Assembly: GCA_963717465.1 (NCBI GenBank)
Contig: OY970340.1
Location: 2,240,001-2,304,000 of the forward strand
Reading direction: 5' to 3'
DNA from: Candidatus Bathyarchaeota archaeon
GTDB taxonomy: Archaea; Thermoproteota; Bathyarchaeia; Bathyarchaeales; Bathycorpusculaceae
DNA length: 64,000 bases
The notes below the pieces were generated by a model, which ran no database searches, was not told the DNA's origin, and saw only the letters and a program-made list of their open reading frames with translations. The translations under genes and the position numbers were made by a program. Below are positions 21,996-41,108 of the stretch, one piece after another; positions within the stretch are counted from its first letter, which is position 1; each line of letters begins with the position of its first letter.

Positions 21996-22037
21996 AATAT
22001 TTTTACCGAACTTATAACTTAAGTTGTAACAAGATTC

Positions 22038-22634: not shown

Positions 22635-22658
22635 TACAACCGCCCATATTCAAGAGAA

Positions 22659-22865
22659 TTATAAACCTAAAATGATATATTGAGTTATAATTGCGTAAAT
22701 AAATAATCCTATAAAAATGGCACCTAATAGCACAGTTAAAAACCGCATGTTCTCTGCAATTGAGGACTTTTTTAATGCTGGAGAGTATTGTGACAGAATA
22801 CTTATAATAAAAAATATTATGAAAACGATAAAGAGGCATTCAATGATAAGAGAAATATTAAGCAA
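22659..22865 (-). CDS. Small two-TM membrane protein
   Basis: Two hydrophobic helices; preceded by GGAGGT-type RBS; fills the operon gap. Confidence 0.6.
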   Translation of the reverse strand: MLNISLIIECLFIVFIIFFIISILSQYSPALKKSSIAENMRFLTVLLGAIFIGLFIYAIITQYIILGL

Positions 22866-22879
22866 TTCGCTCCTACCTC

Positions 22880-24649
22880 CTAGCCGCTGCCTGTTTTAGA
22901 TATAATGGCTGAATCACCATTACTGTAAACGACGCTGCTATTACCAAGCAGATCGTTGACTGGAAAATATAGAGTTGTAACTGATCCTGCCCACATGCCG
23001 TACTGCAAATTATAGTGATCAAGCAAGAAGTAAGTACCGGTAGTATTAATTGGTGTAGTCGCACTATAATCAATTTCTACATTCCAACATGCGTAAAACC
23101 ATTGGTTAGTGAAATCAGTATAATATGTAGAGTTTTCCGAGAAATGTTGATCCAACCAGACAGATGTTGAATATTCATTTACTCCAATAATGTATTGATT
23201 TATAGAAACTGCTGGGTTAACGGATTCTCTAGGCTGATACAAAACATATCTCTGATAACTTGGGATAATCATATTCACGGGAAGATTTATTATCAGAAAG
23301 CCAATCAGAAAAATAATCGCGAAAATTCGCAGCAGACGCCTCTTATTTAGGCGTAGTTTCTTATTTAGAAACAAAATGCTCGCCGCCATAAAAGTTGCGA
23401 AGAAGGGCATACCCATAGTAATTACTCTATCAACATAAACTCCGAGCATTTCTTTTCCAGCCAAAACCCATACGGCCACGAAAGCCATCATGACCAATCC
23501 GCCTAATATCAAAGGCATATGAATGGGTTCCTTCCGAAACGTAAACAACAAACATAAAAAGCCGACGGGAATTAAAACCAAGGTAAAATCAAGCCAAAAA
23601 CCCACTACTTGCCCTGCGGGATTATTCAAAAACCAAGAAGAAGTAGGTGTAGTTGAGGCAACAGCACCCGGAGCATTAGTAATCTGGGAGGTAATCAAAT
23701 AAACTTCATTATGAATGTCAACAAGAAAAGGAAACTGGTTTGTAAAATAAATCCAAAATAAACTTAAACAAATAAAAAATATTAAAAACACACTAGTGAT
23801 AACTTGCTTTCGCCCTTTAAAACTAGAAAACTTGAAAAAAGACAATAGCTTTTTAGGAAAATAACTAATAACAGCGCAAAATACGAAAATACAGACAAAT
23901 ATCATAACAGTCCAATAATCCATAGTGTAATGACTAACCACCAGACCTAACATTGAAAAAATAGCCAGCACAGTGTATACAAGACTATTTTTAGCCTTAT
24001 ACACTTTAACCAACGAATAAATCATCAAAACAAGAAATAATTCAGCAACCCCTTGGCGAATCAGAAAATTAAGAAGATTAAAATTATAATAAAATTGAAC
24101 AAAAATCAAAGCTGAAAGCGCTGAAAGCTTAACATCACCAAAGACTTCTTGAACGGTCTGAAAAATTGCAAGGGGAAGAATAGCCAAAACTGCAAGCATA
24201 ACCCATTGAAAAATAGGCATTAAATCCAAGCCAGTTATCTTAGAAACTATAGCAGGAAACAAAGAAATTGAGGCGGCAGTAAAGTATCGATCTCCTGTTG
24301 CTGCTCTAGCAAGTGACCAGGTATTGCTTTCTAAAGTAACCTTTGCCGAAGCATACTCATAAACAATATCACTTCCCTGTAAAACATTAAACCTAATGTT
24401 GTACATTGCCATTAGAAAGAACGATGTAACAAAAATGACAAAAAAGAAGGGCGCCTTATGATAAGTAACCGTTAAAAAAGCCAAAATGTCACCTATTGCA
24501 AGAGTAATTGCCCCAGCAAAAAGCAAAATCGCAGAAGCTCCATTGTCAACATTTCTTAAGAAAAATACGAGTATAATGACGCCTACAGTTGCAAGGATAA
24601 TCGATAAGATCGAGAGAGAGCTGTTAAGCTTTTTAGACTTGTCTACCAT
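22880..24649 (-). CDS. DUF2206-like multi-pass membrane protein (putative glycan ligase/polymerase)
   Basis: About 13 TM helices; GSDIVYEY, RQGVAELF, GLVVSHYT and C-terminal VYSNG motifs. Confidence 0.7.
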   Translation of the reverse strand: MVDKSKKLNSSLSILSIILATVGVIILVFFLRNVDNGASAILLFAGAITLAIGDILAFLTVTYHKAPFFFVIFVTSFFLMAMYNIRFNVLQGSDIVYEYASAKVTLESNTWSLARAATGDRYFTAASISLFPAIVSKITGLDLMPIFQWVMLAVLAILPLAIFQTVQEVFGDVKLSALSALIFVQFYYNFNLLNFLIRQGVAELFLVLMIYSLVKVYKAKNSLVYTVLAIFSMLGLVVSHYTMDYWTVMIFVCIFVFCAVISYFPKKLLSFFKFSSFKGRKQVITSVFLIFFICLSLFWIYFTNQFPFLVDIHNEVYLITSQITNAPGAVASTTPTSSWFLNNPAGQVVGFWLDFTLVLIPVGFLCLLFTFRKEPIHMPLILGGLVMMAFVAVWVLAGKEMLGVYVDRVITMGMPFFATFMAASILFLNKKLRLNKRRLLRIFAIIFLIGFLIINLPVNMIIPSYQRYVLYQPRESVNPAVSINQYIIGVNEYSTSVWLDQHFSENSTYYTDFTNQWFYACWNVEIDYSATTPINTTGTYFLLDHYNLQYGMWAGSVTTLYFPVNDLLGNSSVVYSNGDSAIISKTGSG

Positions 24650-24921
24650 TAAACCAGCCAATTGGAAAATATATTTTTCGAAATAGTTACAATCCAGCTC
24701 ACAAGCGATTTGCCCTAATTGTCGAAGAGGCATACTACAGCTGACTTATTATTTCTTTGTACTTTGCTAATAGATTAAATACGCGAGTGAGTGCGAAAAA
24801 CTTGACTTATCGAAATAGTGAAGGACTTTAAGGTCCGATCTTTCGAGCGCGGATTTTCGTCAGCTACTAACTCATCGTCTTGCAAGATAAGGTTACTTCA
24901 ATATTTCTCGTCGAGTATAAT

Positions 24922-26070
24922 TTACTTGGGCACGCGCTCTTCGTAAAGAGAATTTATTTTTCGTGAAATGTTTTCCCATGAATAACTTTCTAATTTTTTG
25001 GAAACAGCTTTTTTGTTAAAACTGGCAAAATCATGATGGTAGAAATACCATGAAATTCCTTTTGCCAATTCTTCAGGTTCTTTAGGATTTACAAGCCGTG
25101 TATATTCGCTATTTTCAAATTGAATAGCTACTTCACGTGCACCGCCGACTTTGGTGCATATGACAGGCTTTCCAACACTCAAAGCTTCAAGCAATGTAAG
25201 CGAAAATGTTTCGAAAACAGAAGGAAGAACAAAGACATCACAGGCAGCATAATACAGTGGGAGATCTTCGGATTTTATAAACCCTAAAAACGACATTATA
25301 TCGTTTAATTCGAGCTCGTTAACCAATCTTTTTAGGGAAGCCTCTTCTTCGCCGCGTCCACCAATTAAAAATGCTATTTCAGGTATATCTTTTTTAACGA
25401 GATTTGCCGCCTCAATAAGATACTTAATGCCTTTTTGGCTGGATAACCGCCCAATCGAAAGTACAACGTACTTATACTCAACTCCCAAACGCTTTCTTAC
25501 CAAAGAACCATCAACGTTGAAATTAAAGCGGGAAGTGTCAACACCGTTCGGAATGAATACTGGTTTTGAACCGTAAACCGCCTGCCAACTCCGTTGGATA
25601 GCTGGACTGACAGCGATAAAAGTGTCTACGTATTGAGAAAGTATCTGGACTAATTTGCGATCAATATGTCTAAGTAAATCATTATGAAGTGTGCAAAATA
25701 CTTTAGAGTGTTTAATTCTTTTTGCCATGACCGCCGAAATTAGTAAAGAGGAATAACCAAATCCGTGCACATGTACAACATCGTATTTGCCCTTGCATAA
25801 ATCTCGTATAATCAAAGGAATTGTAAGAAAACTGTAAAGCCACAATAGTCGAGCATTGATGAAATTTGCAAATCGAAATTTCGGAGAAGGCGCCCATCTT
25901 GATGGAATCAATTCTTGGTTTTGTTTTAATTCGCGTTTTCTAGGGACACCGTAAAGTTGAATAAAATCAACTGTATGCCCAAATTTTACAAAGTTTTTGG
26001 ATATCTCGTAAGCGTGAATTTCTCCGCCTCCGTAGAAAAGAGGATTTTCAAGTAGCATAGCTATTTTCAA
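24922..26070 (-). CDS. GT4 family glycosyltransferase
   Basis: GGGEIH, IPNGVD, IGRLSSQKG and LPSVFETFSLTLLEALSVGKPVI. Confidence 0.9.
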   Translation of the reverse strand: MKIAMLLENPLFYGGGEIHAYEISKNFVKFGHTVDFIQLYGVPRKRELKQNQELIPSRWAPSPKFRFANFINARLLWLYSFLTIPLIIRDLCKGKYDVVHVHGFGYSSLLISAVMAKRIKHSKVFCTLHNDLLRHIDRKLVQILSQYVDTFIAVSPAIQRSWQAVYGSKPVFIPNGVDTSRFNFNVDGSLVRKRLGVEYKYVVLSIGRLSSQKGIKYLIEAANLVKKDIPEIAFLIGGRGEEEASLKRLVNELELNDIMSFLGFIKSEDLPLYYAACDVFVLPSVFETFSLTLLEALSVGKPVICTKVGGAREVAIQFENSEYTRLVNPKEPEELAKGISWYFYHHDFASFNKKAVSKKLESYSWENISRKINSLYEERVPK

Positions 26071-27296
26071 TCGCGCCGCCTCAAGAGAGCTAGATATCGT
26101 TTATAGGTGTCAGAGAATGTTTTTTCCCAGGGGTACTCGGTTAAAGCAATTTGCCTGCCGACTTTTCCCATGCTACTTCTAAGCTCCTTGTCTGATAGGA
26201 GTTTAATAATCGCTTTAGCAAGTTCTCGTGAATCATCAGGAACAACGAAACCGCCACCATTTTTTTGCACTAGCTTTGCTATTTCTGGTGCATGCCTTGT
26301 AACTATAATTGGTTTACCAGATGACCAAGCTTCAAGAAATGCCATTCCAAACCCTTCACCTTGCGTTGGAACCGTAAAAACATCGCATATTAAGTAATAA
26401 GCTGGAAGCAATTCGCTTGATACAGATCCAGTGAAAGTGACATTGTTGTGCACATTTAATTCTTGTGAAAGTTTTTCAAGATACGCCCTTTCATTTCCAG
26501 ATCCTACAAGAATGAATTGAGCTTTTGGGAATTCTTTTACAACGCCCGGTGCGGCCCTAATTAGAATATCAAGACCCTTTATTTTTTCCAGACGGCAAAC
26601 CGCAAGTATAACCTGAGAATCTGGGGGGATGACGTCGATTAAATTGGAGTTATCAGTCAGTGAACTGAATTTATCAGCATCTACACCGGGTGGAATCACA
26701 TAAATTTTGGAATCTAAACTTTTATCTCCAACCGCTTTGATTGCTAACTCTTTGAAAAATTCAGAGTTTACAATTATGCAATTAGCATTTTTTAGCACGA
26801 CTCGTCGGCAGGCATCTCCAACAACTGAGAACTTTGCGGCCGTGTCTACTAGTTCCGCAGCATGCCATGTAACTACGACTTTGATCCCAAAGATTTTCTT
26901 AATTATTACTGCAGCTAAACCTTCACCATACGGATCATGAGCATGAATTACATGAGGCCTCAAATGTAATTTCAAAAACGAGAAAAATACAAAAACAGTT
27001 GTGAATAAATATCTAAGCATCTGCGGTTTTGACAAGGTCAAACGAGCACGAAGGGAATAAAACATGGTCGATTTATTGGAAGAGTTAGTTATGTTGCCAA
27101 CATTACTGGCGATCACGTAAACTTCGTTTCCTAACTTTCGCAGTTCTTTCGCTTGATAGTAAGCGTAATACTCTTCGCCCCCGATATTCCATGGAGGAAA
27201 ACCTGGACTAAAAATCACTATCTTTATTTTTTCATCACTATTCCTTTTTACCGAAGGCAATTTTGAAATAACCACAACTCCACATAAATCCTCCAC
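26067..27296 (-). CDS. GT4 family glycosyltransferase (true start probably near 27235)
   Basis: IGGEE, IPPGVD, VCRLEKIKG and EGFGMAFLEAWSSGKP. Confidence 0.88.
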   Translation of the reverse strand: MEDLCGVVVISKLPSVKRNSDEKIKIVIFSPGFPPWNIGGEEYYAYYQAKELRKLGNEVYVIASNVGNITNSSNKSTMFYSLRARLTLSKPQMLRYLFTTVFVFFSFLKLHLRPHVIHAHDPYGEGLAAVIIKKIFGIKVVVTWHAAELVDTAAKFSVVGDACRRVVLKNANCIIVNSEFFKELAIKAVGDKSLDSKIYVIPPGVDADKFSSLTDNSNLIDVIPPDSQVILAVCRLEKIKGLDILIRAAPGVVKEFPKAQFILVGSGNERAYLEKLSQELNVHNNVTFTGSVSSELLPAYYLICDVFTVPTQGEGFGMAFLEAWSSGKPIIVTRHAPEIAKLVQKNGGGFVVPDDSRELAKAIIKLLSDKELRSSMGKVGRQIALTEYPWEKTFSDTYKRYLALLRRRD

Positions 27297-28164
27297 CCAA
27301 AAGGCAAGGCATCAACGCAAATGCTTGCTTTGTAAAATTTGGAATTCGAAACAGTTTATAGGATTCACGCGCAACTCTAGCAATAATTATAGATGGTATA
27401 AAAAACGATACGAGAACTGGGTTCATGGGAAGCCGCCCAAACATGTTTTTGTTAACAACCTGAGCTTTAAAATGCGCCTCTCCAGTTTTGCGTTCCCTAG
27501 ACAGATAGGAAGAAAAATTTAAGTCGCTTCTTATTCCGAAATGAAGAATTTTAGCTTGCGGTTCAAAAAGAATTTTGTAGCCAACATCCGTGATTTTCCT
27601 GCTTAAAAGAAAATCTTCATATATATCAAGTTCTTCATCAAAAAAATTAACGCCCTGTAAGACACTCATTTTAAAGCTGGTGTTACAAGTTGGCGCATGA
27701 TACATATAATTTCGTTTTAAGGTTTCATCAAATTCAGCAAAATTCACATAGTGAGACATAATTGAGGCTTTCGTGCTTGTAACTAAATAAGGGTCAATAA
27801 TTGAGCCTACAACTGCACCAATCGTTTTATCAGAATGGTTTGCAACGTGTAAGGACAGCCAGTTTGTATACGCTTGGCAATCAGCATCGATAAAGGCAAC
27901 AATTTCCCCTTTGGCTTTTTTAAGTCCAACGTTTCTAGCTAATCCGCGTCCTCTTCGTTTATCTACATAGCAGGTAACATTGAATTCTTCACAAATTTTC
28001 AAAGTTAGATCAGTAGATCCCCCATCTACAACGATTATTTCATAACGGTCTTTCGGGTAATCAAGAGAAACAAGCGAGGATAGGCAAGCGCCGATATACT
28101 CTGCCATGTTAAATACTACTACGATAATCGATACAAAAGGGTAATTTTTCTCACATGACTCCAA
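27238..28164 (-). CDS. GT2 family glycosyltransferase
   Basis: VSIIVVVFN, IIVVDGGSTD, ARNVGL, AFIDAD and YED. Confidence 0.9.
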   Translation of the reverse strand: MESCEKNYPFVSIIVVVFNMAEYIGACLSSLVSLDYPKDRYEIIVVDGGSTDLTLKICEEFNVTCYVDKRRGRGLARNVGLKKAKGEIVAFIDADCQAYTNWLSLHVANHSDKTIGAVVGSIIDPYLVTSTKASIMSHYVNFAEFDETLKRNYMYHAPTCNTSFKMSVLQGVNFFDEELDIYEDFLLSRKITDVGYKILFEPQAKILHFGIRSDLNFSSYLSRERKTGEAHFKAQVVNKNMFGRLPMNPVLVSFFIPSIIIARVARESYKLFRIPNFTKQAFALMPCLLGGGFMWSCGYFKIAFGKKE

Positions 28165-28194
28165 TGGTATCCTCTCAAAATCACTCGCTTATTT

Positions 28195-28980
28195 TCAGCC
28201 ACCAATTCTCTCGAATGCCCCTTCCTTATCACCTTTAAGAAAGTTTGTGAACCCTTGAAGTATACCCTTTGCCCAAACAGCGCCCCGTTTACCTTGAAGC
28301 AGCAACAGCGGAGTAATAATGGGAAGACACAGGTAAAATACTCGAATCAAAGGAGTTGTTTTGGTTAAAGAGACGGCTTGGTAAAGGCCAGTCACAGTTC
28401 GAGCTTTATATTCTGATTCTTCTTGTAAAGTGCTCGTTTTCTTTGTTTCTACCCAGCATTCTTCGCAGAAAACAACTCTGTATCCGAGTTCAGGAGCCTT
28501 AAATGAAATGTAATTGTCCTCTGTTTTACAGGGCGGAATAGGCAAAATTTGGTCGAAAATGTTTTTACGTATTAGCATTAGGTCGCCGCTAGATGTAATA
28601 GGTACAATTCGCCTAATTTTATCCATTAAAGAATAAAATTGAAGCTGAGGCCCAGAATTAACTTTAATCTTGCAAAAAACTATTCCAGCTTGTGAGCAGA
28701 TCATTTTCTCAATTGCCTTATCAAAATTAAAAATTTTGTTGTCAACGTCATTTAAACAGACAATTTTAACATTCTCGCCAATAAATTTAGCAGCATAGTT
28801 TATAGCGTCGAACTTTCCCTTTTTCTCGCGATAGATAACTTCAGGGTTACCCGTTTTTTCTGCACAGATAATTACGAATCGAACACCTAAGTTCCTTAGC
28901 TCAACTATTTTTTTGTCTACACCTTCGTAATTTCTTGCGGAGACAATGAAGCAAATTTCGTTTTTATTGATCGTCTCCAT
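28195..28980 (-). CDS. GT2-like glycosyltransferase
   Basis: GKFDAINYA, LNDVD (DxD), SGDLMLIR and TED motifs. Confidence 0.75.
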   Translation of the reverse strand: METINKNEICFIVSARNYEGVDKKIVELRNLGVRFVIICAEKTGNPEVIYREKKGKFDAINYAAKFIGENVKIVCLNDVDNKIFNFDKAIEKMICSQAGIVFCKIKVNSGPQLQFYSLMDKIRRIVPITSSGDLMLIRKNIFDQILPIPPCKTEDNYISFKAPELGYRVVFCEECWVETKKTSTLQEESEYKARTVTGLYQAVSLTKTTPLIRVFYLCLPIITPLLLLQGKRGAVWAKGILQGFTNFLKGDKEGAFERIGG

Positions 28981-29014
28981 CTTACGCCCTTCTTTTCCGA
29001 AGTTTCGAAAATGA

Positions 29015-30181
29015 CTACATCAAGACTGAGTCGTAAATTTCTCTCACTTTTAGTGAAATTTTGCTTAAGTCATAATCATTGTGGACTTTTAAGTTTCCAG
29101 CAGCGCCTAATTTTTGCCTCAATTTACGATCATGATACAACAGCGCGATTGATTCCGCTAGTTTAGCTGGGTCGTGAGTGGGAATAATTAAGCCGTCTTG
29201 ATGATCGAGAATTATTCTCGGTATCTCACCGACGTCTGTGGCAATAACGGGTTGTTTCATCGCCATTGCCTCGATTATTACAAGCCCAAAACCTTCTGCG
29301 TAGGAGGGAAGCACTGTGACATCGCTTTGCGAGTACAGTTGGGGCATCAAATAGTAAGGTCTTCCATCCAAGAATTTGAAGAATTTTTGAAGGTTTAAGG
29401 ATGCAATGCGCGCCTTTAGTTGGAAAATAAACGACGTATCTTGATAACCTGGATTAAAGTCGCCACCTTGTATTAGTAAAAACTGCAGGTCGTTCAGCTT
29501 TTGCTTATTCACTAGTATATCTCCTGCCTCAACTAATTCAAGGATACCTTTAGCTTTAACTAATCTGGCCGGGCAAAAGATTTTGAAGACCTCTTCAGAC
29601 TTTGCAGGGTATAAATCTGAGTTGAAGATTTCAAGGTCTACTCCATTAGGAAGGTAAAAAACTTGCTTTCCTATAGCATTGCCTAATAAAAGAGCACTAT
29701 CCTTGTTGTTACATATAATGGCATTGCAGTCTCTGGCGTCCTCCACATACTTATTTATGTTATCATTGTTGATTTGCTCATGAAATGTTATTACCACAGG
29801 TTTTCCCTTAACGAATTTCCAGCCCTTGAATCTTATTCCTGTTTCTATTTTTCTAAAAGATGGCTCAAAGCCTCTTGTAAGTCCTTGAACATGTATGAGA
29901 TCGAATTTCTTCTTTACCTTATTCAGGTAATAAACATCTGCCGTTTGTTGTATCCCAAAAACTAAATGATACTTAAATCCTGAATCCTCAGAGGTAGAAA
30001 GAAAACGGTTTCTAAGAATGCTGAATTGGCCTTCTGAATCATAAATTATTGGAGAACTCCCATAAGTGTAGACTGTTACAGAAGTGTTTTTTCTGGAAAG
30101 AAACTTGACCAGCGAAGATACATAGCTTTCTGTCCCGCCCCAACGTGGGAAAAAGCTATGTGTTAATATTAGTACATTCAT
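29015..30181 (-). CDS. GT4 family glycosyltransferase
   Basis: WGGTE, LPNGVD, ARLVKAKG and LPSYAEGFGLVIIEAMAM. Confidence 0.9.
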   Translation of the reverse strand: MNVLILTHSFFPRWGGTESYVSSLVKFLSRKNTSVTVYTYGSSPIIYDSEGQFSILRNRFLSTSEDSGFKYHLVFGIQQTADVYYLNKVKKKFDLIHVQGLTRGFEPSFRKIETGIRFKGWKFVKGKPVVITFHEQINNDNINKYVEDARDCNAIICNNKDSALLLGNAIGKQVFYLPNGVDLEIFNSDLYPAKSEEVFKIFCPARLVKAKGILELVEAGDILVNKQKLNDLQFLLIQGGDFNPGYQDTSFIFQLKARIASLNLQKFFKFLDGRPYYLMPQLYSQSDVTVLPSYAEGFGLVIIEAMAMKQPVIATDVGEIPRIILDHQDGLIIPTHDPAKLAESIALLYHDRKLRQKLGAAGNLKVHNDYDLSKISLKVREIYDSVLM

Positions 30182-30198: not shown

Positions 30199-31176
30199 TT
30201 AATTAGCCGTTGCTTTAGAACGACGAGAATTGCTTATGCCGAAAAAATGCAGAAAGTGAGAATACAGAAAACGGGGTTTATAATTGAAATTTTCGATACC
30301 CCACTGAACGCTGTCTAAATAAATCTTATCAACCAGTTCTTGAGTTGGCTTAAGATTTTTTATAGTACTCTTTAATGGAGGTGTAACCTCGATTAGACCG
30401 GCTTTTTTGAAATAGCTTATTCTATCAATGAAAAGCGAGAATTCTTTGAATAGTCTTTTTTGCTCTTGCTCACCGAGGTCCTCTGTAGGAACTAGTACTT
30501 TTGGATTGCCTTTGAAGTAAATTGAGTCCCAATGTCCTTGATTGATCAGGGATGTTGGATGTAAAAGTAGTACAGATGTGCCATTTAAAAGACTCATGCG
30601 AAGCGATCTAGTTAATGTTCTTAGATTAAATGGGTAGCCGTCTGGCGGGCAGAGAACTATTGGGAAAGGGTAAAATTGTATTTCTTTATAGAATGATGGA
30701 CCTGCTTTTAGACGAGTTGAAAAGTCGTATCTGATTCCAAGTTTTACGAGTGCCTCTAACATGGGTGGGGACCAAGCGAATCCTGGCGCTCTGAAGGAAA
30801 CGATGGATTTTTTTGGAAATAGTTCTTTGAGGGATAATAGTCCCCCCGGACCTAAAATTTCACCAGTAGTTGTTGAAATAAGTGAGGTTTCTCTTTTCAG
30901 GGATATTTCGACTGATTCACAGTAATCTTCAACATCCGTATATTCTATAATTAGAGGTCTCACGGAATGAGCTGCTGAATGGTACCCAATCTCATGATTG
31001 GCCAAACGTTGTTTTAGTTCGGGATAAAATTTCAATTTATCTGCCACGTGACCCGTTATAAAAAATAAACCTTTCAGTTCCGCAGCATCCAGTGCATCAA
31101 GTATCTGTTTCAAGATAAGAAAAGATTTTGGTTTAACGACATCCTCAACATCAAATGTTAAAAATATGTCTGGCAT
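30199..31176 (-). CDS. Polysaccharide deacetylase (CE4/NodB-like)
   Basis: LTFDVED, HEIGYHSAAH, SFRAPGF, YDFS and LLHP. Confidence 0.85.
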   Translation of the reverse strand: MPDIFLTFDVEDVVKPKSFLILKQILDALDAAELKGLFFITGHVADKLKFYPELKQRLANHEIGYHSAAHSVRPLIIEYTDVEDYCESVEISLKRETSLISTTTGEILGPGGLLSLKELFPKKSIVSFRAPGFAWSPPMLEALVKLGIRYDFSTRLKAGPSFYKEIQFYPFPIVLCPPDGYPFNLRTLTRSLRMSLLNGTSVLLLHPTSLINQGHWDSIYFKGNPKVLVPTEDLGEQEQKRLFKEFSLFIDRISYFKKAGLIEVTPPLKSTIKNLKPTQELVDKIYLDSVQWGIENFNYKPRFLYSHFLHFFGISNSRRSKATAN

Positions 31177-31419: not shown

Positions 31420-32037
31420 TTAAGAACCTCCTCCGCAATATTCCCCGTTCAGCCACTTCACCATGCAAAAGTGTTCAACCTCAACTTGAGATTTGCCTGA
31501 AAATACTGTGACGTCTTTGTGTGGGTTTGTTGGGTCAGGCATAATCACCTTGTTCTTTAAGGGCAATCTTTTAAAATCCTCAATCCTGTGGGAATCCCAG
31601 ACGTGAGGATCGGGATTAGCGTTTCCTTTCTCATCTCCGACCAGCATAACAAACAAATTTTCCAGATTCACCCTTCGTGCTCTTCGAGTCCATTTAACTC
31701 GTGCCTCCTCTTCAGAATGATAGTGCAGGAAACAAATTTCAACATCCTCGAGTACACCTACCGGATAAGGATGCCCACGAAGGCTCATGTGCTCCTTAAC
31801 AGTAGGGTGTTTTGAGACGCCTACAAACTGTATTAGAATGTTGAGATAATGCTCAAGGTTTGAAAGAAATTTAATATAGTCCTCTAAGAAAAAGAACAAG
31901 CCAACTGTTGGTGTAGTATATTGTAAACCCAATTCTTTGTATCCAAATATTCCGGCTCCGCAATTATTGGATATTATTGTAAAATCCTTGTTCTTTAGCC
32001 TATTCGCCGTAATGGCGGTGCAACTTTGCATCTCCAC
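31420..32037 (-). CDS. DUF1919 family protein
   Basis: FTIISNNC, YTTPTVGLF, YPVGVL, FLHYHSEEEARVKWTRR. Confidence 0.82.
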   Translation of the reverse strand: MEMQSCTAITANRLKNKDFTIISNNCGAGIFGYKELGLQYTTPTVGLFFFLEDYIKFLSNLEHYLNILIQFVGVSKHPTVKEHMSLRGHPYPVGVLEDVEICFLHYHSEEEARVKWTRRARRVNLENLFVMLVGDEKGNANPDPHVWDSHRIEDFKRLPLKNKVIMPDPTNPHKDVTVFSGKSQVEVEHFCMVKWLNGEYCGGGS

Positions 32038-32040
32038 GTC

Positions 32041-32101: not shown

Positions 32102-32103
32102 AT

Positions 32104-32941
32104 TTACAACTTTAAAATTATGGTATTTAACAATTCATCAGTAGAGCGCGTGCGTTCACCAGTAATACCCTTACTGTAAGTACATACTATTCTACATATG
32201 TTACTGTATTTTTGAGAAATGTTTATGCTTTCGTTCTTGGATGAAATAATAAAATCTCCATTTTCAGTCGAAAAATTCCATTGATGCAGTCCATTATAAT
32301 TTTGTATACGTGCTTCATTAGGTCTATGAATCATTAAGATATAGCAATTTTTTTTGACTACTTTTATCATTTCTAGTATTGCTTTTTCCGGAGAATAAGA
32401 ATGGTCTATACAATTACATGCAAAGACCAAGTCAAACGAGTTTTTGGGAAACATCTCTGTGAGTTTTTCGGCGTCAGATTTCTTCGTTTGAATTAGTGGA
32501 GAAACACAGTATTTCTTCATAAGATTGTCGTATTCGTCGAGCTAGAGGGTCAACAGCAGTGATATTGATTTTTAATCCTTCGTGTACTTTCCCCAGACGG
32601 GTGAGAGGGCCTGCACCTACATCCAGAATTTCAACTTGGCTCTTATTTTGAGGGAGTAACTTAACGACTGCTTCCTGTAGTGGAAAAGTGGGATCTAATC
32701 TAGCGTTATAATCTTGTGGCTTCTCTAAACCCTTGGTTTCAAAATAATCGTTCCAAAAGGACACTTCAGACTTTACAGCTGTTTTCCATCTTAATTTCGA
32801 ATTTAAAGGTACGCGTATTCCCGTTTTATCTTCAAAAACATAAATAGTAAAACCCACAAATCCAAGGTCTCTTAATCCTGCTATTACATTTGCTATTGCA
32901 TTCTTGGCTTTTTTCACATAAGCATATTTCAAGATTTTCAC
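32104..32941 (-). CDS. Class I SAM-dependent methyltransferase, split by an indel near 32535
   Basis: ILDVGAGP, AVDPLA, DAEKL and FDLVFACNCIDH. Confidence 0.8.
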
Positions 32942-33478: not shown

Positions 33479-34465
33479 TTAACGTGGCTCCTTGTGAACA
33501 AAGAGGGATGCAGCTTGTAAGGCGTTGTATGTGATTATCATGTCTGCTCCGGCTCTTCGGATTGAGTTCAATGATTCCATTACTAGTGCGCTCTCTCTAA
33601 TTTTGGTATTCTTGCAAAGTAATTTTATAAAGGCATATTCTCCGCTAACTTGGTAAGCAGCAATAGGAGTAGTAGGATAACTTTGTTTAACCCTAAGTAT
33701 GAGGTCTAAATTCACTAATGCTGGCTTCACTATAACGATGTCTGCACCCTCATCCAAGTCAAGGCTTACTTTTTGCATAAACAATTTATCATTAATGACA
33801 TCGCTTCTAAATTTGCTGGAGTCGACACAGTTTCTTTGAGCTTTTGAGTCCGCCATTGCTTCATAGAAAGGTTGGAAAAGGCAGCTGTTAGTTTTAATGT
33901 ACGTCATGATGGCTGTGTTATTAAGTCCTTGGTCATCTAGAGCTTCGCGGATATGTTTAACTTGGCCGTCGCACATAGCGGCTGGTGCAATAACGTCTGC
34001 TCCAGCTTGAGCGTGAACAACGGATATTTTGGCCAGCATCTTTGCAGTCTTCTCACTAAGGACTTGCCCCCTCTCGCTATAGACACAGAAATCGTCCTTT
34101 GTGTAGTCGCATAAACAAACATTTGATATTAGGACGAGTTTATCTCCAAACTTTTTCTTGAGCATACTAAATATCTTGCTGTGAAAGTTGTTTTCTTTTA
34201 GTGCTACTGAACCATCAGAGTCTCGGTGAGCTATAACGCCAAAAACTAGAATGCCAGGGATGCCTAAATCTACTGCTTTGTTACATACCTCGACAGCTTC
34301 GGTTAAGGATAGGTAGTTTTGGCCATCCATAGATGGGATTGGGAAGCCTTTACCGTCTTCTCTGACAAAAATTGGATAAATAAAATTGTTAGAAGTTAGG
34401 GAGGTGGGCTGTATTAGACTTAACAGGGATCTTGATTGCTTAAGGCGAAAAGTCGCATTCATCAT
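33479..34465 (-). CDS. hemB: Porphobilinogen synthase (ALA dehydratase) homolog, divergent
   Basis: IYPIFV, CLCDYTKDDFC (Zn), AGADVIAPAAMCDGQV, GADIVIVKPA, AYQVSGEY and RRAGADMIITY. The lid region is atypical. Confidence 0.85.
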   Translation of the reverse strand: MMNATFRLKQSRSLLSLIQPTSLTSNNFIYPIFVREDGKGFPIPSMDGQNYLSLTEAVEVCNKAVDLGIPGILVFGVIAHRDSDGSVALKENNFHSKIFSMLKKKFGDKLVLISNVCLCDYTKDDFCVYSERGQVLSEKTAKMLAKISVVHAQAGADVIAPAAMCDGQVKHIREALDDQGLNNTAIMTYIKTNSCLFQPFYEAMADSKAQRNCVDSSKFRSDVINDKLFMQKVSLDLDEGADIVIVKPALVNLDLILRVKQSYPTTPIAAYQVSGEYAFIKLLCKNTKIRESALVMESLNSIRRAGADMIITYNALQAASLFVHKEPR

Positions 34466-34531
34466 AATTCACCTTTTTCTACGCTATGGACAGCTTACTT
34501 TTAAATTCTTTTATTTTTAAATATTAATTTG

Positions 34532-35881
34532 TTATAAGAAATTTTTTGCGATACTCAGGAAAAGGAAAGTTGAAGTCCCAACAGCATTTGTTAGAAGGTT
34601 TTCTATGCTGAATCTGGAGACAGATGAGTAATACTGCGGATAAAGGATGTCGCCCTTTGGATCAATCTTGCCTTCTTTAACGGCCAAGTCATACAGTTCC
34701 GTATGGGGATAAATTCGCATTTTAGTAAATCCAACATATGCGAGCTTCTCTTTAAGCTCCACTAACATTCTTGGAACAATATTAACAAGTCCAGCTACAT
34801 GCGAAGCATTATTCGAAGGCAAATCAATCATGAAGTTAAAGCCCACCTTAACGTTTTCTAAAGCTTTAAAATAGGAAATTGAGGCATTTATTTGACTAAC
34901 AGTCAGGTTTCTCTTAAGCATCACTAAGGCTTCATCTGAGGCACCATCCGCAGAAAAATTCAATAGTCGACATCCAGATTTAACTGCGTCAGCCGCGAAA
35001 CGTGCATTAAGAAAAGCTGGATGAGCATCAGTACTCCATTCTATCTCAACTTTTCGCTCTAAAAGTTCATGGACTATTTCTTGAGCATGCTCAAATGGAT
35101 AGTTGAAGATGGAGCTAACAAAAAATAAATTCGTTACTCCGTATTCACTTACTAACTTTTCAACTTCGTCAACGATTTTTCTAGGCGATCTCAGTCTAAG
35201 GTTGCAGCCGGAAATGTGATAGTTGGGACAGAACATGCATTTGAAAGCGCAACCTCTTTGAGTCTGCACTGAGAGGGCAAAGGAGTGTTTATCGTACTTT
35301 TTTATATCGAAGAATTCTCTGGAAGGTATCGGTAAAGAATTGAAATCTTCAAAAATTTTTGGAGTGAAAATTAATTTACCATTTTTTTTGAAAACTAAAT
35401 TATTTACTCTTTCAGGAGTCTTCATTTTTTTAAGAAGCTGTGCAAATGAATGCTCGCCTTCAAAAACTAAGCCGAAGTCGATTTCAGGATTTCCATCCAT
35501 GACTTCTTTCGCGAAAAGTGAAAAGCCGGAGCCGCCAACGACGAGTTTGCATGTGGGTAGTGTATTTTTTATCATCTTAACTGTTGACACAAATGTTGGA
35601 TAGTACCATTTGTGAACAGTTGAAATCGCGCTATCAGTATTTCTTAGTGATAATCCTACAACATCCGGTTTTATTTTCTCCAGCATGCTTGGAAGCTTTT
35701 CTAATGGATTTTGGGAATCATCAACATTGGGATCCCAACAATAAACTTCATGATCTTTTTTAATCATGGATGCGATGGATGCTAGACCGATGGGAAAAAC
35801 AAGTGGCGTAGCATCCGATAATTTTTTACCAATGTACGATTGGCAAAGAAAAACGCGCATGACTCCACAACTCAAACTCAA
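34532..35881 (-). CDS. Cobalamin-dependent radical SAM enzyme
   Basis: N-terminal B12-binding domain (FPIGLASIA, PDVVGLSLRNTD, VVGGSGFS, EGE) plus TQRGCAFKCMFC (CxxxCxxC). Confidence 0.9.
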   Translation of the reverse strand: MSLSCGVMRVFLCQSYIGKKLSDATPLVFPIGLASIASMIKKDHEVYCWDPNVDDSQNPLEKLPSMLEKIKPDVVGLSLRNTDSAISTVHKWYYPTFVSTVKMIKNTLPTCKLVVGGSGFSLFAKEVMDGNPEIDFGLVFEGEHSFAQLLKKMKTPERVNNLVFKKNGKLIFTPKIFEDFNSLPIPSREFFDIKKYDKHSFALSVQTQRGCAFKCMFCPNYHISGCNLRLRSPRKIVDEVEKLVSEYGVTNLFFVSSIFNYPFEHAQEIVHELLERKVEIEWSTDAHPAFLNARFAADAVKSGCRLLNFSADGASDEALVMLKRNLTVSQINASISYFKALENVKVGFNFMIDLPSNNASHVAGLVNIVPRMLVELKEKLAYVGFTKMRIYPHTELYDLAVKEGKIDPKGDILYPQYYSSVSRFSIENLLTNAVGTSTFLFLSIAKNFL

Positions 35882-36720
35882 ATTTTTTTAGAGACAAAAA
35901 CTGCTTGCAATAAAAACCTATTTTGATAAAGTCTGATAATACCTATTGGTACGCCGCTAATCTTAATTTTCCTTAACAATATTATTCTTAATAAATTCAG
36001 TAAGCTGTGATTATTTTTCACTATCTCAAGCGCGTTTAAATCTGCAGTTAAAACGACGTTCGCTTGCGAAAAATCTGTTTCGCTAAGTTCAATATTATTC
36101 TTGTTGATATTAATAAGAAACTTGGGCAGTCCCTTGATGTTAAAGAGGACTCGCATTTTATGGTTTGAAGCCATATTAACCTGCTTTGATTTTTTGAAGG
36201 AATCGATTTTTTCTTGTATGGTCTTTATGTTGAGAAGCTTGTAATATGTAATCACATTGTTTTGGATTGGAATATAATCAAATGAAGAATTAAAAAAGTT
36301 CTTGTTCAGCCGAAGGTCGCCAGTTATCATCATACTAGCTACTATCTCTTTCTTTTTAATTACATCGCCCGTTGAGGATCTCAAAAAACGTAAAAGATTT
36401 GTTCCAACACCGCTGCCTCTATAGGCAGGATCAACAATAAGATCAGCAGCAAATATGGCATTAACATTTAAAGTATCAGTAAGTCTTAAATTGATTGGAA
36501 TCCAATGATTGCATCCAATTATCTTTCCGTTTGTTTCTGCAACTGCAATAAATGATGCTTCAAAATTTGGGTTTGATTTATATTTCCAATCCCAGTACTC
36601 CTTACTCTGAGTTTCTTCAAGTGTAGCGTCTAAAAGTGATACAAGCGCTTTAACCGCTTGTTCATCATCACTTACAAAGGCCCTGCAACGATAATTTTCC
36701 AACTTTTTCGGTTCGTTCAA
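35878..36720 (-). CDS. GNAT N-acyltransferase with C-terminal SCP2-like domain
   Basis: YWDWKY..NP, motif A VDPAYRGSGVG and C-terminal KIKISG. Overlaps neighbours by TTGA junctions. Confidence 0.8.
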   Translation of the reverse strand: MNEPKKLENYRCRAFVSDDEQAVKALVSLLDATLEETQSKEYWDWKYKSNPNFEASFIAVAETNGKIIGCNHWIPINLRLTDTLNVNAIFAADLIVDPAYRGSGVGTNLLRFLRSSTGDVIKKKEIVASMMITGDLRLNKNFFNSSFDYIPIQNNVITYYKLLNIKTIQEKIDSFKKSKQVNMASNHKMRVLFNIKGLPKFLININKNNIELSETDFSQANVVLTADLNALEIVKNNHSLLNLLRIILLRKIKISGVPIGIIRLYQNRFLLQAVFVSKKI

Positions 36721-37520
36721 CCATAATCACCAAGTTGGAGGCACCAATCAGGTTTAAGTTGCATAGATGATAAAAACCTAAGCACACTATAAAATTTCCA
36801 AAAAGGCCTTATCTTAAGTTTAGAAAGAATGAAAGCCTTGGAAGGATCCAAGAGTCCAAAGATTAAACATGAGAAAATTGATTCAGTCGTTTCCAAGTAA
36901 ATTTCGTTAATAATATTATCATTATTATCCTCGCTTGCAACTTGAACTTTGCCATCGTTAACAGTTAAGACCACATTTTTTTGGGCTGACGACTTGTCGT
37001 TTCTTAGCTTAATGGTGAGTTTTTCGTTAATTTGGCTTTCTAAATGCTTACTGGTTATTATTAACGTTAATAGTTTTTGATAGTCAAATATGCGCAAACA
37101 AACCAGCGGGGGCGAGTAAGTGCTGAAACCCAATTTTCTACAATTTTCATTTAATAAATCATCCTTTATTGGAGCATTAAACGAAATCGAATCTGCATTG
37201 ATTTCGTGTAAGTAGCTTATTGCGTTGTTTAGTAGAAGTAAGATTATTTTTTCTCCATCTTTTTCTGAATCGTAGCAGAACTCCCATATTTTACCAGATT
37301 TTCCAATTACAGTGTAACCGACAATTTCGGCTTTTTCATTTTCAACTATTAATATTTTGTCAGGTTCAACATCTGGCCGTTGCAAACACGACCAACGCCA
37401 ATATTCAACTGTTTTAGTTGGAAAGCCACCGTATTTTCCAAATTCCTTGTTGAAGAGACTTAAAATTTTTGATTCGTCGCCTTCCTTGAACGTTCTGAGG
37501 GCATATTTGATTTCAGTCAA
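36717..37520 (-). CDS. GNAT-fold protein with C-terminal SCP2-like domain
   Basis: LRTFKEGDE, YWRW...RPD, IVGY and KLGF; SCP2-like tail (AFILSKLKI). No clear motif A. Confidence 0.65.
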   Translation of the reverse strand: MTEIKYALRTFKEGDESKILSLFNKEFGKYGGFPTKTVEYWRWSCLQRPDVEPDKILIVENEKAEIVGYTVIGKSGKIWEFCYDSEKDGEKIILLLLNNAISYLHEINADSISFNAPIKDDLLNENCRKLGFSTYSPPLVCLRIFDYQKLLTLIITSKHLESQINEKLTIKLRNDKSSAQKNVVLTVNDGKVQVASEDNNDNIINEIYLETTESIFSCLIFGLLDPSKAFILSKLKIRPFWKFYSVLRFLSSMQLKPDWCLQLGDYG

Positions 37521-37645: not shown

Positions 37646-38938
37646 TTAGTTGATGACTAAGCTTTTCTTCATTTTGTCCTCGAAAACGCCGATTGGAACG
37701 AATATAGCATCATCTAATGTGAGCGTAACACCAAGCTTTGTCTTCAAAAGTTCATGAAGAGATTCCCTTATTAATTGTTGTTTGCTAACACTCAAATCGC
37801 CGTTTGTTTCCGCTTTAATTATAAACCTCTGTTGTGGAGAACTTTTGTCAATAATTATTTGGCATCTGCCTGTTAACTCGGGAAAATTAACCAATATTGC
37901 TTCCACTCTGCTAGGAAATACTGATACGCCTTTTACTTTTACCATGAAGTCTTTTCGGTCAATATCTGTTCCGATTTTAGGGTGACACATGCCACAACTG
38001 CATTGTTGAAAACCATAACAGTCAACAATGTCACGTGATGAATACCTGATTATGGGTGAGGCTTCCCTTTGCAAACTTGTGATTACAAGCTCGCCTCTTT
38101 CACCATCAGATAAAGTCTCCATTGTTTGGGGGTCCACTACTTCAACTAAATACTTATCAGCCCAAATATGATGCCCTCCAGCGCCCTCTTCGCAGTAAAC
38201 TGAGAGCCCTGGGAATTCAGTGGCGCCATAATCGAGGAAAATGTTTTCGTAACCTAACTCGTTTTTCAAGCGTTCTCTTTGCTGTAAAGTTGGTTTTTCA
38301 GAGACGCAGATACCGGCTCTTAAGGATGATTTACTTAAATCTTGACCGGTTTGTTTAGCTACTTCTGCGATGCGTAAATGGTAGTTTGTTACACCATAGA
38401 TAATAGTCGTGTTAAGATTTTTAATTAGTCTTATTTGACGTTCCGTATCTCCAGGTCCTACGGGTATTTCGCATATTCCCATCTTATTTAGACCCCAATG
38501 AATTGACCAAGCGCCTTGGAATAAGCCGTACAATGCGGTAACTTGAACCTTGTCTTTTGAAGTAATACCGTGAAACGTTAATTTTCTAGCAGATGCTTCA
38601 GCAATATTTTCAACGTCATTTCTACTGTGCGCTATAGTCATAGGAACTCCTGTTGTTCCGCTTGTTTGCCTAATTGTTAGAACTTTATCAAACGGTACAG
38701 CGAGCACATCTTGAAAATTATATTCCATTTCAGTTCTCGTGGTTATTGGAATTTTACGAATATCTTCAAGAGTTACAATGTCAGAAGGCGTTATGCCTGC
38801 TTTCTTGAGTTTTTCATGGTAAAATTTGCTGTTGGAATATACATGGGTTAATTCTTGTTTTAGTAATTTTACCTGAAGCTCTTTCAATTCTTTTATAGTG
38901 GCGCCCTGAATCTTTGGAGCCCAAAATTGCTTTTTCAT
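37646..38938 (-). CDS. Phenylacetate-CoA ligase (PaaK) family adenylate-forming enzyme, divergent substrate pocket
   Basis: TSGTTG, DYGATE, GELVITSLQREASPIIRY, CSCG and KGVSVFPS. Confidence 0.85.
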   Translation of the reverse strand: MKKQFWAPKIQGATIKELKELQVKLLKQELTHVYSNSKFYHEKLKKAGITPSDIVTLEDIRKIPITTRTEMEYNFQDVLAVPFDKVLTIRQTSGTTGVPMTIAHSRNDVENIAEASARKLTFHGITSKDKVQVTALYGLFQGAWSIHWGLNKMGICEIPVGPGDTERQIRLIKNLNTTIIYGVTNYHLRIAEVAKQTGQDLSKSSLRAGICVSEKPTLQQRERLKNELGYENIFLDYGATEFPGLSVYCEEGAGGHHIWADKYLVEVVDPQTMETLSDGERGELVITSLQREASPIIRYSSRDIVDCYGFQQCSCGMCHPKIGTDIDRKDFMVKVKGVSVFPSRVEAILVNFPELTGRCQIIIDKSSPQQRFIIKAETNGDLSVSKQQLIRESLHELLKTKLGVTLTLDDAIFVPIGVFEDKMKKSLVIN

Positions 38939-39050
38939 TTCGCATCCGCCCAAGCTCGAACTTTAGTATAACAATGAAATATGGAAATATGACTGTCCCT
39001 TTAGTTATCTATTAGAAAACAATTGTTTTTGCGTTAAATGGTTAACCAGT

Positions 39051-39833
39051 TTAGAGGCGGCTTGAAAGAAGTTGAAGTAGACTCTTAAAGCCGTCCGAAT
39101 AGCGAATTTTGGATTTTCCAACTTTACGATAAGCGTAACCAATAGGCACCTCGCAGAACCTTGAGCCGTTTTGCAAGCTTTTAGAAGTCATTTCAATTTC
39201 AACTGCGAAACCGCTCTCTGTTAGCTCGAAGCCATCAACGATGTAACGCTTAAAAGCTTTTGAACCAGTCATTATGTCGGTTATGGGCGCATTGTAAAGC
39301 ATTCGAGCAGTTGCAGATAATAATCTGTTACCCATGTAGTGTGAAAAACTCATGCCTTTAGTTTTTCCGACAAATCTTGAACCGAAGACAACATCAGCTT
39401 TATTGTCCAGAATTGGCTTGACGAGCTCAGGGATCGAATCAGGAGAATACTCCATATCAGCGTCTTGAACTACAACAACTGTTCCTGAAGAATTGCAAAA
39501 GCCAGTTTTAAGCGCTGCACCCTTGCCCATATTCTTGGCATGACGGATGTATTTAATGTATGGAAAAGAAGTGAAGGCAGCAATCTCTTCCTGCGTATTA
39601 TCAGTAGAACCATCGTCCACAACAATGATTTCAACGGTGTTTGGAGACCAATTAATCTCCGTTAGCATCTTAAGCACCAGCGCTATGCTTTTCTCTTCGT
39701 TGTAAACTGGAACAACAACACTGATATCTGGAAGAGTCAAATTGTCAATAAAGGCTGAAGAAATACGTTCATTGTTATCGCTTTGTATTAGCAAGTGTTT
39801 TTCCCCTTGGCTTCTATATAATCGCTTACTCAA
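39051..39833 (-). CDS. GT2 DPM1-like (polyprenyl-phosphate) glycosyltransferase
   Basis: VVVPVYNEE, VDDGSTD, NMGKGAAL, QDADMEY, VFGSRF and TDIMTG. Confidence 0.88.
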   Translation of the reverse strand: MSKRLYRSQGEKHLLIQSDNNERISSAFIDNLTLPDISVVVPVYNEEKSIALVLKMLTEINWSPNTVEIIVVDDGSTDNTQEEIAAFTSFPYIKYIRHAKNMGKGAALKTGFCNSSGTVVVVQDADMEYSPDSIPELVKPILDNKADVVFGSRFVGKTKGMSFSHYMGNRLLSATARMLYNAPITDIMTGSKAFKRYIVDGFELTESGFAVEIEMTSKSLQNGSRFCEVPIGYAYRKVGKSKIRYSDGFKSLLQLLSSRL

Positions 39834-39940: not shown

Positions 39941-40252
39941 TTATGGGAGGTTTTGCAGTAACCTAGCAAGTTTTGCGTGCTCAGAATCCAACACTTCAAG
40001 CAGTTGTTGCGCCTTAACGGATCGTTCATAAAATTCATAGTACTGCCTGAGAAACTCGCGCCCACTTTCAGTTAGTAAATATACTGAGCCGTTAATTTGA
40101 ATTAAACCCGCACTAATCGTCATATCCAAGTATTTCTCCAGCAATTTAAAACTCAAATTCGCGGCAATCATAATTCGCGTCTTGTTAGAACCCAAATTTG
40201 TAGCCTCCAGAACAGACGCAACAATCCGTAACCTATCACGATTCTTACCCAT
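39941..40252 (-). CDS. Archaeal winged helix-turn-helix regulator (HTH_45/DUF4364-like)
   Basis: RDRLRIVASVL...KTRIM..ANLS...KYL...YLLTESG. Confidence 0.85.
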   Translation of the reverse strand: MGKNRDRLRIVASVLEATNLGSNKTRIMIAANLSFKLLEKYLDMTISAGLIQINGSVYLLTESGREFLRQYYEFYERSVKAQQLLEVLDSEHAKLARLLQNLP

Positions 40253-41108
40253 GAAAATACCAGCTAAAACTTTAAACAAAGCCAGTTAAGCACCAAGCAG
40301 AGACCCCTCTATCCAAATCCCTTCTTGACAGAAGCGGACATGAACAAGAGAACTCTAACTATGCTTCAAACCCCTAACACTTATCCTCCACTTGTGAAGA
40401 AGCATGATTCAATAGAACTTCTTTTAAACTTTTCTATTACACAATAGGAACTGCAATAAAAGACAGCAATTGCAAAAGCTCTCACAGAAAAGCCCAAGCT
40501 AATAGCAAACGACCAATTGTAAACCAAGCTAGAAAACTGCACAACTTTATTGCTTATCGAAATTAGCATTGAAACACCCTTCTTCGCAATTTATAGCAAA
40601 AAACAACTACGAAAACGAAATTTAAACCATATCTCTGGAAATATAACATATCAGCAAAAAAGAAAAGCACCAATATTAAGTTACATTATGAAACACTGGA
40701 AAGCCAAACAAGGCCTAAGTGCAATGAAAAAACAAGATAATTTTAAAACAAATGGCAGCACTTACTGAAAAACAAAGCAGTTCTTAAAAAATTACAAAGA
40801 TCTGACAAGCTCAAGAAGAGGATGGTCAATTAGTTTTCTCTTCTTAGTTTAAATTTTTCTAGCTGCTAGCACATAACATATTTTGGTTGTTCTTAATTGT
40901 CAGGGGGCACAATAGAGCGATACCCAAACCGTTTTTTACTCGCGCATCTGCTTCTCCATTAATGCATACAGCCAAATATTAGAATACAGAAAAAGGAAAC
41001 TCATATGAATTCTTAAATTTTAATATATGCGAAGTTTTAAAAACCATTTTGTAGACTTTAATAAAACTGAGGGAAAGGAAAGCGCAAAAATCTAAGATAG
41101 AAACTTCA

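Follow-up and report, generated by a model that had tools for sequence, protein, structure and literature searches.

Porphobilinogen synthase (PBGS) is usually treated as a single-purpose enzyme, which condenses two molecules of free 5-aminolevulinate (ALA) to porphobilinogen (PBG). In the aminocoumarins, a proline-derived pyrrolyl-2-carboxyl unit is C-methylated by CloN6, a B12-binding radical S-adenosylmethionine (B12-rSAM) enzyme, and attached to a sugar. The nearest described use of ALA outside of tetrapyrroles is the C5N unit (2-amino-3-hydroxycyclopent-2-enone) of actinomycete antibiotics, a small decoration into which ALA is diverted by a cyclising ALA synthase that acts together with an acyl-CoA ligase and an amide synthetase (PMC4525017). 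For PBGS itself, an A side and a P side are distinguished (PMC7725820); in the human enzyme, the A-site ligands are R209 and R221 together with a Cys-bound zinc, and the P-site residues are S279, Y318, K199, and K252 (according to a 2026 paper, PMC13465085). Here, we analyze a 64,000 nt stretch of a Candidatus Bathyarchaeota genome (contig OY970340.1, positions 2,240,001 to 2,304,000, assembly GCA_963717465.1), in the following called the window, which harbors a diverged paralogue of the ALAD/PBGS family, termed HemB*. With a rough probability of 0.6, HemB* forms a pyrrole in a Knorr-type reaction as part of a conserved 'ALA module', which archaea of this class insert into surface-glycan loci, and has no role in tetrapyrrole synthesis.

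The open reading frame (ORF) of HemB* occupies exactly positions 33479..34465 on the (−) strand of the window, starts with ATG, is open over its full length, and encodes 328 aa. A Pfam search retrieved the ALAD family (PF00490) with 307.4 bits over profile positions 6–316 of 317, compared with 417 bits for the canonical HemB of the same genome. HemB* matches 24 distinct sequences of solved ALADs, best of all the Pyrobaculum enzyme (5lzl, E value 4.4e-61), and its identity to the canonical Zn-dependent enzymes of Pyrobaculum, E. coli (1b4e), and human (1e51) is 37–40%. An AlphaFold2 model computed with 24 family members as input had a mean predicted local distance difference test score (pLDDT) of 80.7 and a predicted TM score (pTM) of 0.84, and the top Foldseek matches of this model were all ALAD structures, with TM scores of about 0.83. 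The alignments to the solved ALADs contained every motif that a preliminary description, made from the sequence alone, had quoted as retained, that is, the Zn triad CLC-x7-C (C117, C119, and C127), the Schiff-base lysines K191 (TYIK) and K247 (VKPA), and the P-side motifs QVSGEY (residues 272–277, including S274) and IITY with Y313. The alignments also bore out its reading of an altered lid: LFQPFY (residues 196–201) faces the canonical FYGPFR, so that residue 201 is Y, and DSSKFRSD (residues 215–222, VDSSKFRSD) faces the canonical GDRxxYQMD, so that residue 216 is S, with three extra residues between the two segments compared with the canonical enzymes. By its predicted fold and its core, HemB* belongs to the ALAD superfamily, but two features that characterize PBGS proper are missing, the A-site Arg pair and a place in a tetrapyrrole pathway.

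To compare the two sides of the active site across the family, 121 paralogues were aligned with 91 canonical HemBs. The latter comprised the genome's own copy, ten relatives, and 80 loci from a scan of genome contigs with the paralogue alignment, which used motifs common to all HemBs and returned only canonical copies (35–42% identity). Columns 201 and 216 correspond to human R209 and R221, as given by the spacing from the lysines (K199 + 10 and K252 − 31, respectively). The canonical enzymes have R at column 201 in all 91 cases and at column 216 in 90 of the 91, whereas not one of the 121 paralogues has Arg at either position; instead, column 201 is F in 106, K in 8, and Y in 7 paralogues, and column 216 is S in 111, P in 5, and G in 4. 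Two basic residues appear close by. Column 220, Q in 90 of the canonical enzymes, is R in all 121 paralogues, and column 218, at which the canonical enzymes have no basic majority (S in 41, T in 22, and G in 20), is K in 107 and R in 13 paralogues. The catalytic core has not changed: C117, C119, C127, K191, and K247 are each present in 121 of 121 paralogues, and the P-site residues S274 and Y313 are each present in 120 of 121. The consensus of the altered lid across the paralogues is KTDSCLFQPFFEAMTLSKTPRRGVDSSKFRTDIINE.

An unbiased scan of all sites gave the same picture. Altogether, 25 sites are fixed differently between the paralogues and the canonical HemBs, and 66 sites are common to both. 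The fixed differences are concentrated in the lid (Y197F, R201F, R216S, Y219F, and Q220R), in the region of the Zn loop (D115N, with 100% versus 100%, E120D, G125E, and G128V, and D138E just beyond the loop), and in the APS motif (S162A and M165C); the helix that follows the lid contributes E228M, R231Q, and E232K, the last of which replaces what we take to be the allosteric-Mg glutamate. Of the differing sites, the five in the lid, D115N, G125E, and G128V near the Zn loop, and S162A are assigned to the A side. The shared sites include the whole of the P-site motifs 270–277 and 246–249, with K247, S274, and Y277 within them, as well as Y313. The comparison thus points to a P side that has been kept and an A side that has been systematically rebuilt. 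The HemB* family offers a natural experiment in which the influence of the A site on the substrate specificity of PBGS can be followed. The preliminary description had stated that the lid that binds the A-side carboxylate is lost. The loss of both Arg residues was borne out, but the lid turned out to be rebuilt rather than simply lost, as it is longer and carries conserved basic residues at positions 218 (K/R, 120 of 121) and 220 (R, 121 of 121). The N-terminal arm, described there as degenerate, is not: R7 is kept in 109 of the 109 paralogues for which the N-terminus is present, with K in place of R at position 9. Its proposal that ALA binds at the P side, and a changed partner at the A side, agrees with the untouched P side and with the family-wide rebuilding of the A side; to a partner or a product that actually differs from the canonical reaction we would give slightly less than an even chance.

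The altered lid is a property of a whole family. The 120 best matches to HemB* in a collection of 5.8 billion proteins have identities of 61–100%, and all of them have the rebuilt lid. FastTree placed 122 paralogues and 91 canonical enzymes on opposite sides of a branch that has a length of 0.99 and a support of 1.0. The dN/dS ratio between HemB* and its 80%-identical homologue at locus L103 is 0.078, with a dS of 1.5 that is near saturation (more distant pairs are saturated). The paralogues thus form a distinct clade that is under purifying selection. The preliminary description had named substitutions private to this genome, through decay or error, as an alternative; because the lid change is conserved throughout the family and the gene is under purifying selection, this alternative is refuted. 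After clustering of a library at 50% identity, a single representative (636 bits) stands for the entire HemB* family, and the next full-length match has 325 bits. Three divergent representatives outside of this main cluster, P0121, P0123, and P0124, also lack both A-site Arg residues and have Arg at position 220, and P0121 in addition lacks the first Zn cysteine; all three could belong to sister sub-families that have other partners. Within the paralogues, a sub-group of eight (P0035, P0048, P0066, P0089, P0094, P0096, P0103, and P0108) has Lys at position 201 (KPFKEAM) and a lid that is shorter by one residue, and may represent a second specificity type.

The genomic distribution separates HemB* from the tetrapyrrole pathway. 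The host genome (G000) is a single contig of 3.05 Mb and contains two genes of the PF00490 family. The second of them encodes a HemB with a canonical lid (SLYSPFR...GDRSSYQMD) and lies outside of the window in a canonical run hemA-hemB-hemL-hemC-cobA/hemD-cbiX (C1:1566576-1577359). The genes after this run have N-termini that, judged by eye, resemble NifH/NifD-like and MurF-like proteins of the F430 pathway (Cfb), and the genome encodes a McrA homologue (PF02249, 200.9 bits, C1:1664367-1664747). The host thus has a clear need for tetrapyrroles, and the canonical hem run is its normal way of making them. As a side observation, the host is an archaeon that bears methyl-coenzyme M reductase, and about three quarters of the sampled genomes of the class show no hemB. 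In four further genomes that carry HemB*, parts of the pathway were not found. In G329 (100% complete), G025 (99%), and G232 (92%), canonical hemB, hemC, and hemD were not found; a hemA gene is located 13 kb upstream of HemB* on the same strand in G329, 9 kb upstream on the same strand in G232, and on a separate contig in G025. In G379 (86% complete), which has a HemB* fragment at a contig end, hemC was not found and the only hemB match was this paralogue fragment (hemD was not searched); hemA lies 5 kb upstream of the fragment. G247, like the host, has a complete, separate canonical hem set, and G394 has canonical hemB and hemA and, for hemC, only a fragment that lies at the end of a contig and scores below the threshold (hemD was not searched); both G247 and G394 have a second, module-type hemA in addition.

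Consistently, a tblastn search with the HemC, CobA/HemD, and CbiX proteins of the host found no match in 383 kb around 42 copies of the paralogue, nor in the window. Unlike the canonical enzyme, HemB* was thus never located beside hemC or hemD in the regions searched and is present in genomes in which these two genes were not found. HemB* is independent of hemC and hemD. A different idea, that HemB* is simply the lineage's own form of HemB, was rejected, as a canonical HemB is present in about 100 of the 401 class genomes and, in the host, stands beside hemC and hemD. Proteins of the HemB* type are automatically annotated as 'porphobilinogen synthase', so that a tetrapyrrole capacity may be ascribed to genomes that do not have it, a point of importance when metabolism is reconstructed from Bathyarchaeia-like metagenome-assembled genomes.

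The gene neighborhoods indicate the context in which HemB* works. When metagenome contigs were scanned for the lid motif specific to the paralogues, 40 loci were retrieved, which, together with a G025 locus and the window, resulted in 39 non-redundant sets. The neighbors of HemB* in these loci are almost all encoded on the same strand and belong to recurrent families. Two of them make up the route to ALA, that is, glutamyl-tRNA reductase HemA (TIGR01035, 368 bits versus a cut-off of 210) and glutamate-1-semialdehyde aminomutase HemL (TIGR00713, 608 bits versus a cut-off of 527). Others are a B12-rSAM enzyme, a PaaK-like ligase, a pair of GNAT proteins, and, directly downstream of HemB*, a PIG-L de-N-acetylase; further recurrent neighbors are glycosyltransferases of the families GT2 and GT4, Gfo/Idh/MocA oxidoreductases, DUF362 proteins, SPASM radical-SAM enzymes, and sugar epimerases/dehydrogenases. 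Seven loci extend for 8 kb or more upstream of HemB*; the B12-rSAM enzyme is present in six of them, HemL and the PaaK-like ligase in five each, and HemA in four. At least 1.5 kb of downstream flank is available for 25 loci, which contain PIG-L in 16, GT2 in 20, and Gfo/Idh/MocA in 21 cases, and a same-strand GT2 or GT4 gene is present in 23 of the 24 loci with a total flank of at least 5 kb.

The order in G329 is GNATb-GNATa-ligase-HemA-HemL-...-B12rSAM-...-HemB*-PIG-L-GFO, and G232 and G379 have the same order. A variant is represented by the loci L147 (G247:C5:119601-132000) and L146, in which genes for a PaaK-like ligase, HemA, a deacetylase, GNATb, GNATa, a UbiD-family decarboxylase, two B12-rSAM enzymes, DUF362, and a PNP_UDP phosphorylase are accompanied by HemB*, which is followed by a MiaB-like enzyme (UPF0004 and radical SAM); a glycosyltransferase gene is absent immediately downstream at these two loci. 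The two copies in G025 (L136 and L137, on contigs C49 and C2), which are 62% and 61% identical to HemB*, are each flanked by Gfo/Idh/MocA and DUF362 genes. We consider it likely that HemB* is a functional, tetrapyrrole-independent enzyme of a module that consumes ALA and decorates glycans.

For the chemistry of such a module, we propose the following route. HemA and HemL would supply ALA, which, in the genome of the window, would be the task of the host copies, the hemA gene of the island being broken. The unchanged P site of HemB* would bind one ALA in a Schiff-base linkage, and the rebuilt A site would accept a partner other than free ALA in the canonical pose. The preferred candidate for this partner is an ALA with a carboxyl group that is already derivatized, being either linked to CoA in a thioester or joined to a de-N-acetylated amino sugar through an amide bond; a different aminomethyl ketone would be an alternative. 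With a carboxyl-derivatized ALA at the A site, the carboxylate-binding Arg pair would be useless, and the company of PIG-L and of the ligase and GNAT genes would be explained. The resulting PBG-like pyrrole might then be C-methylated by the B12-rSAM enzyme and N-acylated onto the glycan by the CoA ligase and the GNAT pair. The ligase related to phenylacetate-CoA ligases, the BzaD-like radical SAM enzyme, and the UbiD-family decarboxylase in G247 fit an aromatic or heteroaromatic acid intermediate, although none of them proves it. In its most specific form, a cell-surface glycan of some archaea would carry a C-methylated monopyrrole derived from ALA, and HemB* would join a free ALA at the P site to an ALA at the A site that is already tethered through its carboxyl end, either to CoA or to a de-N-acetylated amino sugar, and would have discarded the Arg residues for this reason; this version we put forward tentatively and consider rather unlikely in all its details.

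The resemblance of this route to the two described systems is partial. The C5N-unit pathway resembles the HemB* module in that genes for the supply of ALA are clustered here, too, with those for a CoA-type ligase and for acyl transfer. However, ALA originates there from an ALA synthase and here from the C5 route via HemA and HemL; the ring former there yields a cyclopentenone, whereas the one here is homologous to PBGS, so that a pyrrole is the more likely product; and the hosts there are actinomycetes, whereas the module described here has GNAT-like transferases, archaeal hosts, and a location in a glycan locus. The catalogued neighbor families of HemB* include neither a cyclising ALA synthase nor an amide synthetase, although no search was aimed at the ALA synthase. 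The aminocoumarin pyrrole resembles the proposed product as a monopyrrole acyl decoration that is methylated by a B12-rSAM enzyme and attached to a sugar. It is, however, made by oxidation of carrier-bound proline rather than by ALA condensation, and neither a carrier nor proline-oxidizing enzymes were seen at the HemB* loci. Unlike CloN6, the B12-rSAM enzyme of the HemB* locus is nearest to BzaD, with a score below the cut-off. In the literature covered, which did not extend to subscription journals, no description was found of such a HemB paralogue or of hemA/hemL in glycan loci, and one paper on Bathyarchaeia mentions porphobilinogen deaminase only as a phylogenetic marker. HemB* seems to mark an undescribed pathway. 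If the proposed function is correct, ALA and the pyrrole-forming step would have a second, structural use, the PBGS fold would have its first job outside of tetrapyrrole synthesis, and the glycan modification would be of a new class. An Ehrlich-reactive pyrrole on a glycan, if this is the product, would be easy to look for.

The explanation that competes best with this proposal is that HemB* is an ordinary PBGS, which condenses two free ALA to PBG with R220 and K218 as a carboxylate clamp in place of R201 and R216. Only the fate of PBG would then be new: its acetate side chain would be activated by the PaaK-like ligase and then transferred to the glycan. HemB* passes the NCBIfam equivalog for PBGS (NF006762), though narrowly (305.2 bits versus a cut-off of 297), and it keeps all catalytic residues and Zn ligands. 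The invariant R220 at the position of the canonical A-site Gln, together with K/R218, could indeed still clamp a carboxylate. This Arg and the narrow equivalog pass keep the explanation alive, and the ligase is nearest to CoA ligases for arylacetates (phenylacetate), an apparent chemical analogy to the heteroaryl-acetate group of PBG. On the other hand, the loss of both A-site Arg residues, seen in all 121 paralogues, and the accompanying changes D115N and S162A amount to much coordinated change for one and the same reaction, the stem branch is long (0.99), and the presence of a separate canonical HemB in the host suggests that HemB and HemB* are not interchangeable. We therefore regard an ordinary PBGS as unlikely, though a serious contender.

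It is considerably less probable that HemB* makes no pyrrole at all and that ALA is not its substrate. The enzyme would then carry out a Schiff-base reaction, similar to class I aldolases, that forms a C–C or C–N bond, with a keto sugar or a keto acid from the glycan pathway as its substrate. Its embedding among sugar-modifying genes would fit such a reaction, as would the lack of an intact ALA-supply gene next to it in the window. This is opposed by the dedicated hemA and hemL genes in the same co-directional block of related loci and genomes, by the invariance of the ALA-binding residues of the P site, and by the retention of both lysines and the Zn site, which serve the condensation of two substrates. 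That HemB* is a decaying, non-functional hemB duplicate or a sequencing or assembly artefact is hardly credible, although the gene is an additional copy and lies in an accessory island of low GC content (0.377) that also contains a broken hemA and a possibly frameshifted methyltransferase gene, as the full-length open frame, the recurrence of the same substitutions in all of the best homologues from many assemblies, the low dN/dS, and the 66 sites still in common with canonical HemB all speak against it.

Several further observations weigh against a pyrrole-forming role of HemB* in an ALA module. The paralogue is rare: matches at the paralogue level, that is, with at least 445 bits and at least 61% identity (the next best match anywhere had 255 bits), were obtained in 6 of 401 class genomes (G000, G329, G394, G232, G025 with its two copies, and G247), to which the fragment in G379 is added, and in none of the 39 further genomes from this genus; at the level of the phylum, with a sample of 401 genomes, such a match was confined to G000 and G025. 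HemA and HemL are missing from some of the loci with long upstream flanks (present in only four and five of seven, respectively), and the related loci are kin and thus no independent samples. The locus in the window is itself devoid of an intact hemA, hemL, or PIG-L gene, and its sole hemA is broken and 24 kb away. The roles of D115 and S162 as A-side residues are assumed. The substrate, the product, and the glycan acceptor named for the module are all putative. The structure prediction that the preliminary description had called for delivered the ALAD fold, but the pLDDT is below 50 at the lid (residues 202–222) and at the loop past the third Cys (residues 128–135), so that the model gives no pocket geometry; the equivalent loops are without density in crystals of apo mouse ALAD, according to PMC13465085.

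In the window, HemB* is part of a co-directional block on the (−) strand that extends from about 40.3 kb down to 20.8 kb, and all genes of this block described below are on that strand. A winged-helix protein (HTH_45, Pfam; 39941..40279) at the upstream edge is a possible regulator, and a GT2 glycosyltransferase (39051..39833) forms the upstream end of the locus. The following gene (37646..38953) encodes the PaaK-like adenylate-forming ligase of the (aryl)acetate-CoA type, which has 277 bits versus PaaK cut-offs of 646–700 and is closest to phenylacetate-CoA ligases (4r1l, 1.8e-75). Next are GNATb (36717..37520, cluster c18), a constant partner of GNATa that had no Pfam or NCBIfam match and one faint SCP2-like match to a solved structure, and GNATa (35878..36720, cluster c17), a GNAT-family acyltransferase by Pfam for which a sequence search of the PDB found no solved relative. 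The B12-rSAM gene (34532..35881) is located directly upstream of HemB*; the best families of its product are BzaD (252 bits, cut-off 450) and a lipid B12-rSAM family, both below the cut-off.

Downstream of HemB*, a class I SAM methyltransferase (32104..32941) is encoded by two overlapping ORFs, 32474-32941 with the motif DVGAGP and 32104-32520 with the C-terminal half of Methyltransf_11, a split that is possibly due to a frameshift or sequencing error. It is followed by a DUF1919 protein (31420..32037); the closest related locus, L103, has neither the split methyltransferase nor the DUF1919 gene. A polysaccharide-deacetylase-like protein (30199..31176, cluster c9), assigned by Pfam and clustering, is a recurrent neighbor. 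The glycan assembly block proper (20787..30181) consists of genes for a GT4 (29015-30181), a GT2-like protein (28195-28980), a GT2 (27238-28164), two further GT4s (26067-27296 and 24922-26070), a membrane protein that clusters with DUF2206 proteins (22880-24733), a hexapeptide acyltransferase (22038-22634), and another GT4 (20787-21995). Over the whole region 20787-40279, the GC content is 0.377, compared with a genome mean of 0.401, which places it in the lowest 2% of 19.5-kb windows. The low GC content and the absence of HemB* from the 39 other genomes of the genus are consistent with a mobile or variable surface-glycan island. A search with Rfam yielded no match in the window at gathering thresholds.

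The broken second hemA gene (8122..9365, (−) strand) has in-frame TAG and TAA stops and a shifted C-terminus; its longest piece (8402-9166) contains part of the GlutR_N domain and the Shikimate_DH domain. A module-type HemA used as query is 41% identical to the product of this gene and 34% identical to that of the working hemA of the genome. The greater similarity to the module-type HemA fits an island that once had its own ALA supply and now relies on that of the host, although, with a distance of 24 kb from HemB*, the link to the module is only suggestive. In addition, the glycan block is adjoined by genes for large, probable surface proteins. Three of them are encoded on the (−) strand, namely a protein of 924 aa with InlB B-repeat-like domains (5206-7980), one of 739 aa with a PQQ-like beta-propeller (10810-13029), and one of 1270 aa that had no Pfam match (13313-17125), and a protein of 686 aa with a right-handed beta-helix is encoded on the (+) strand (18492-20552).

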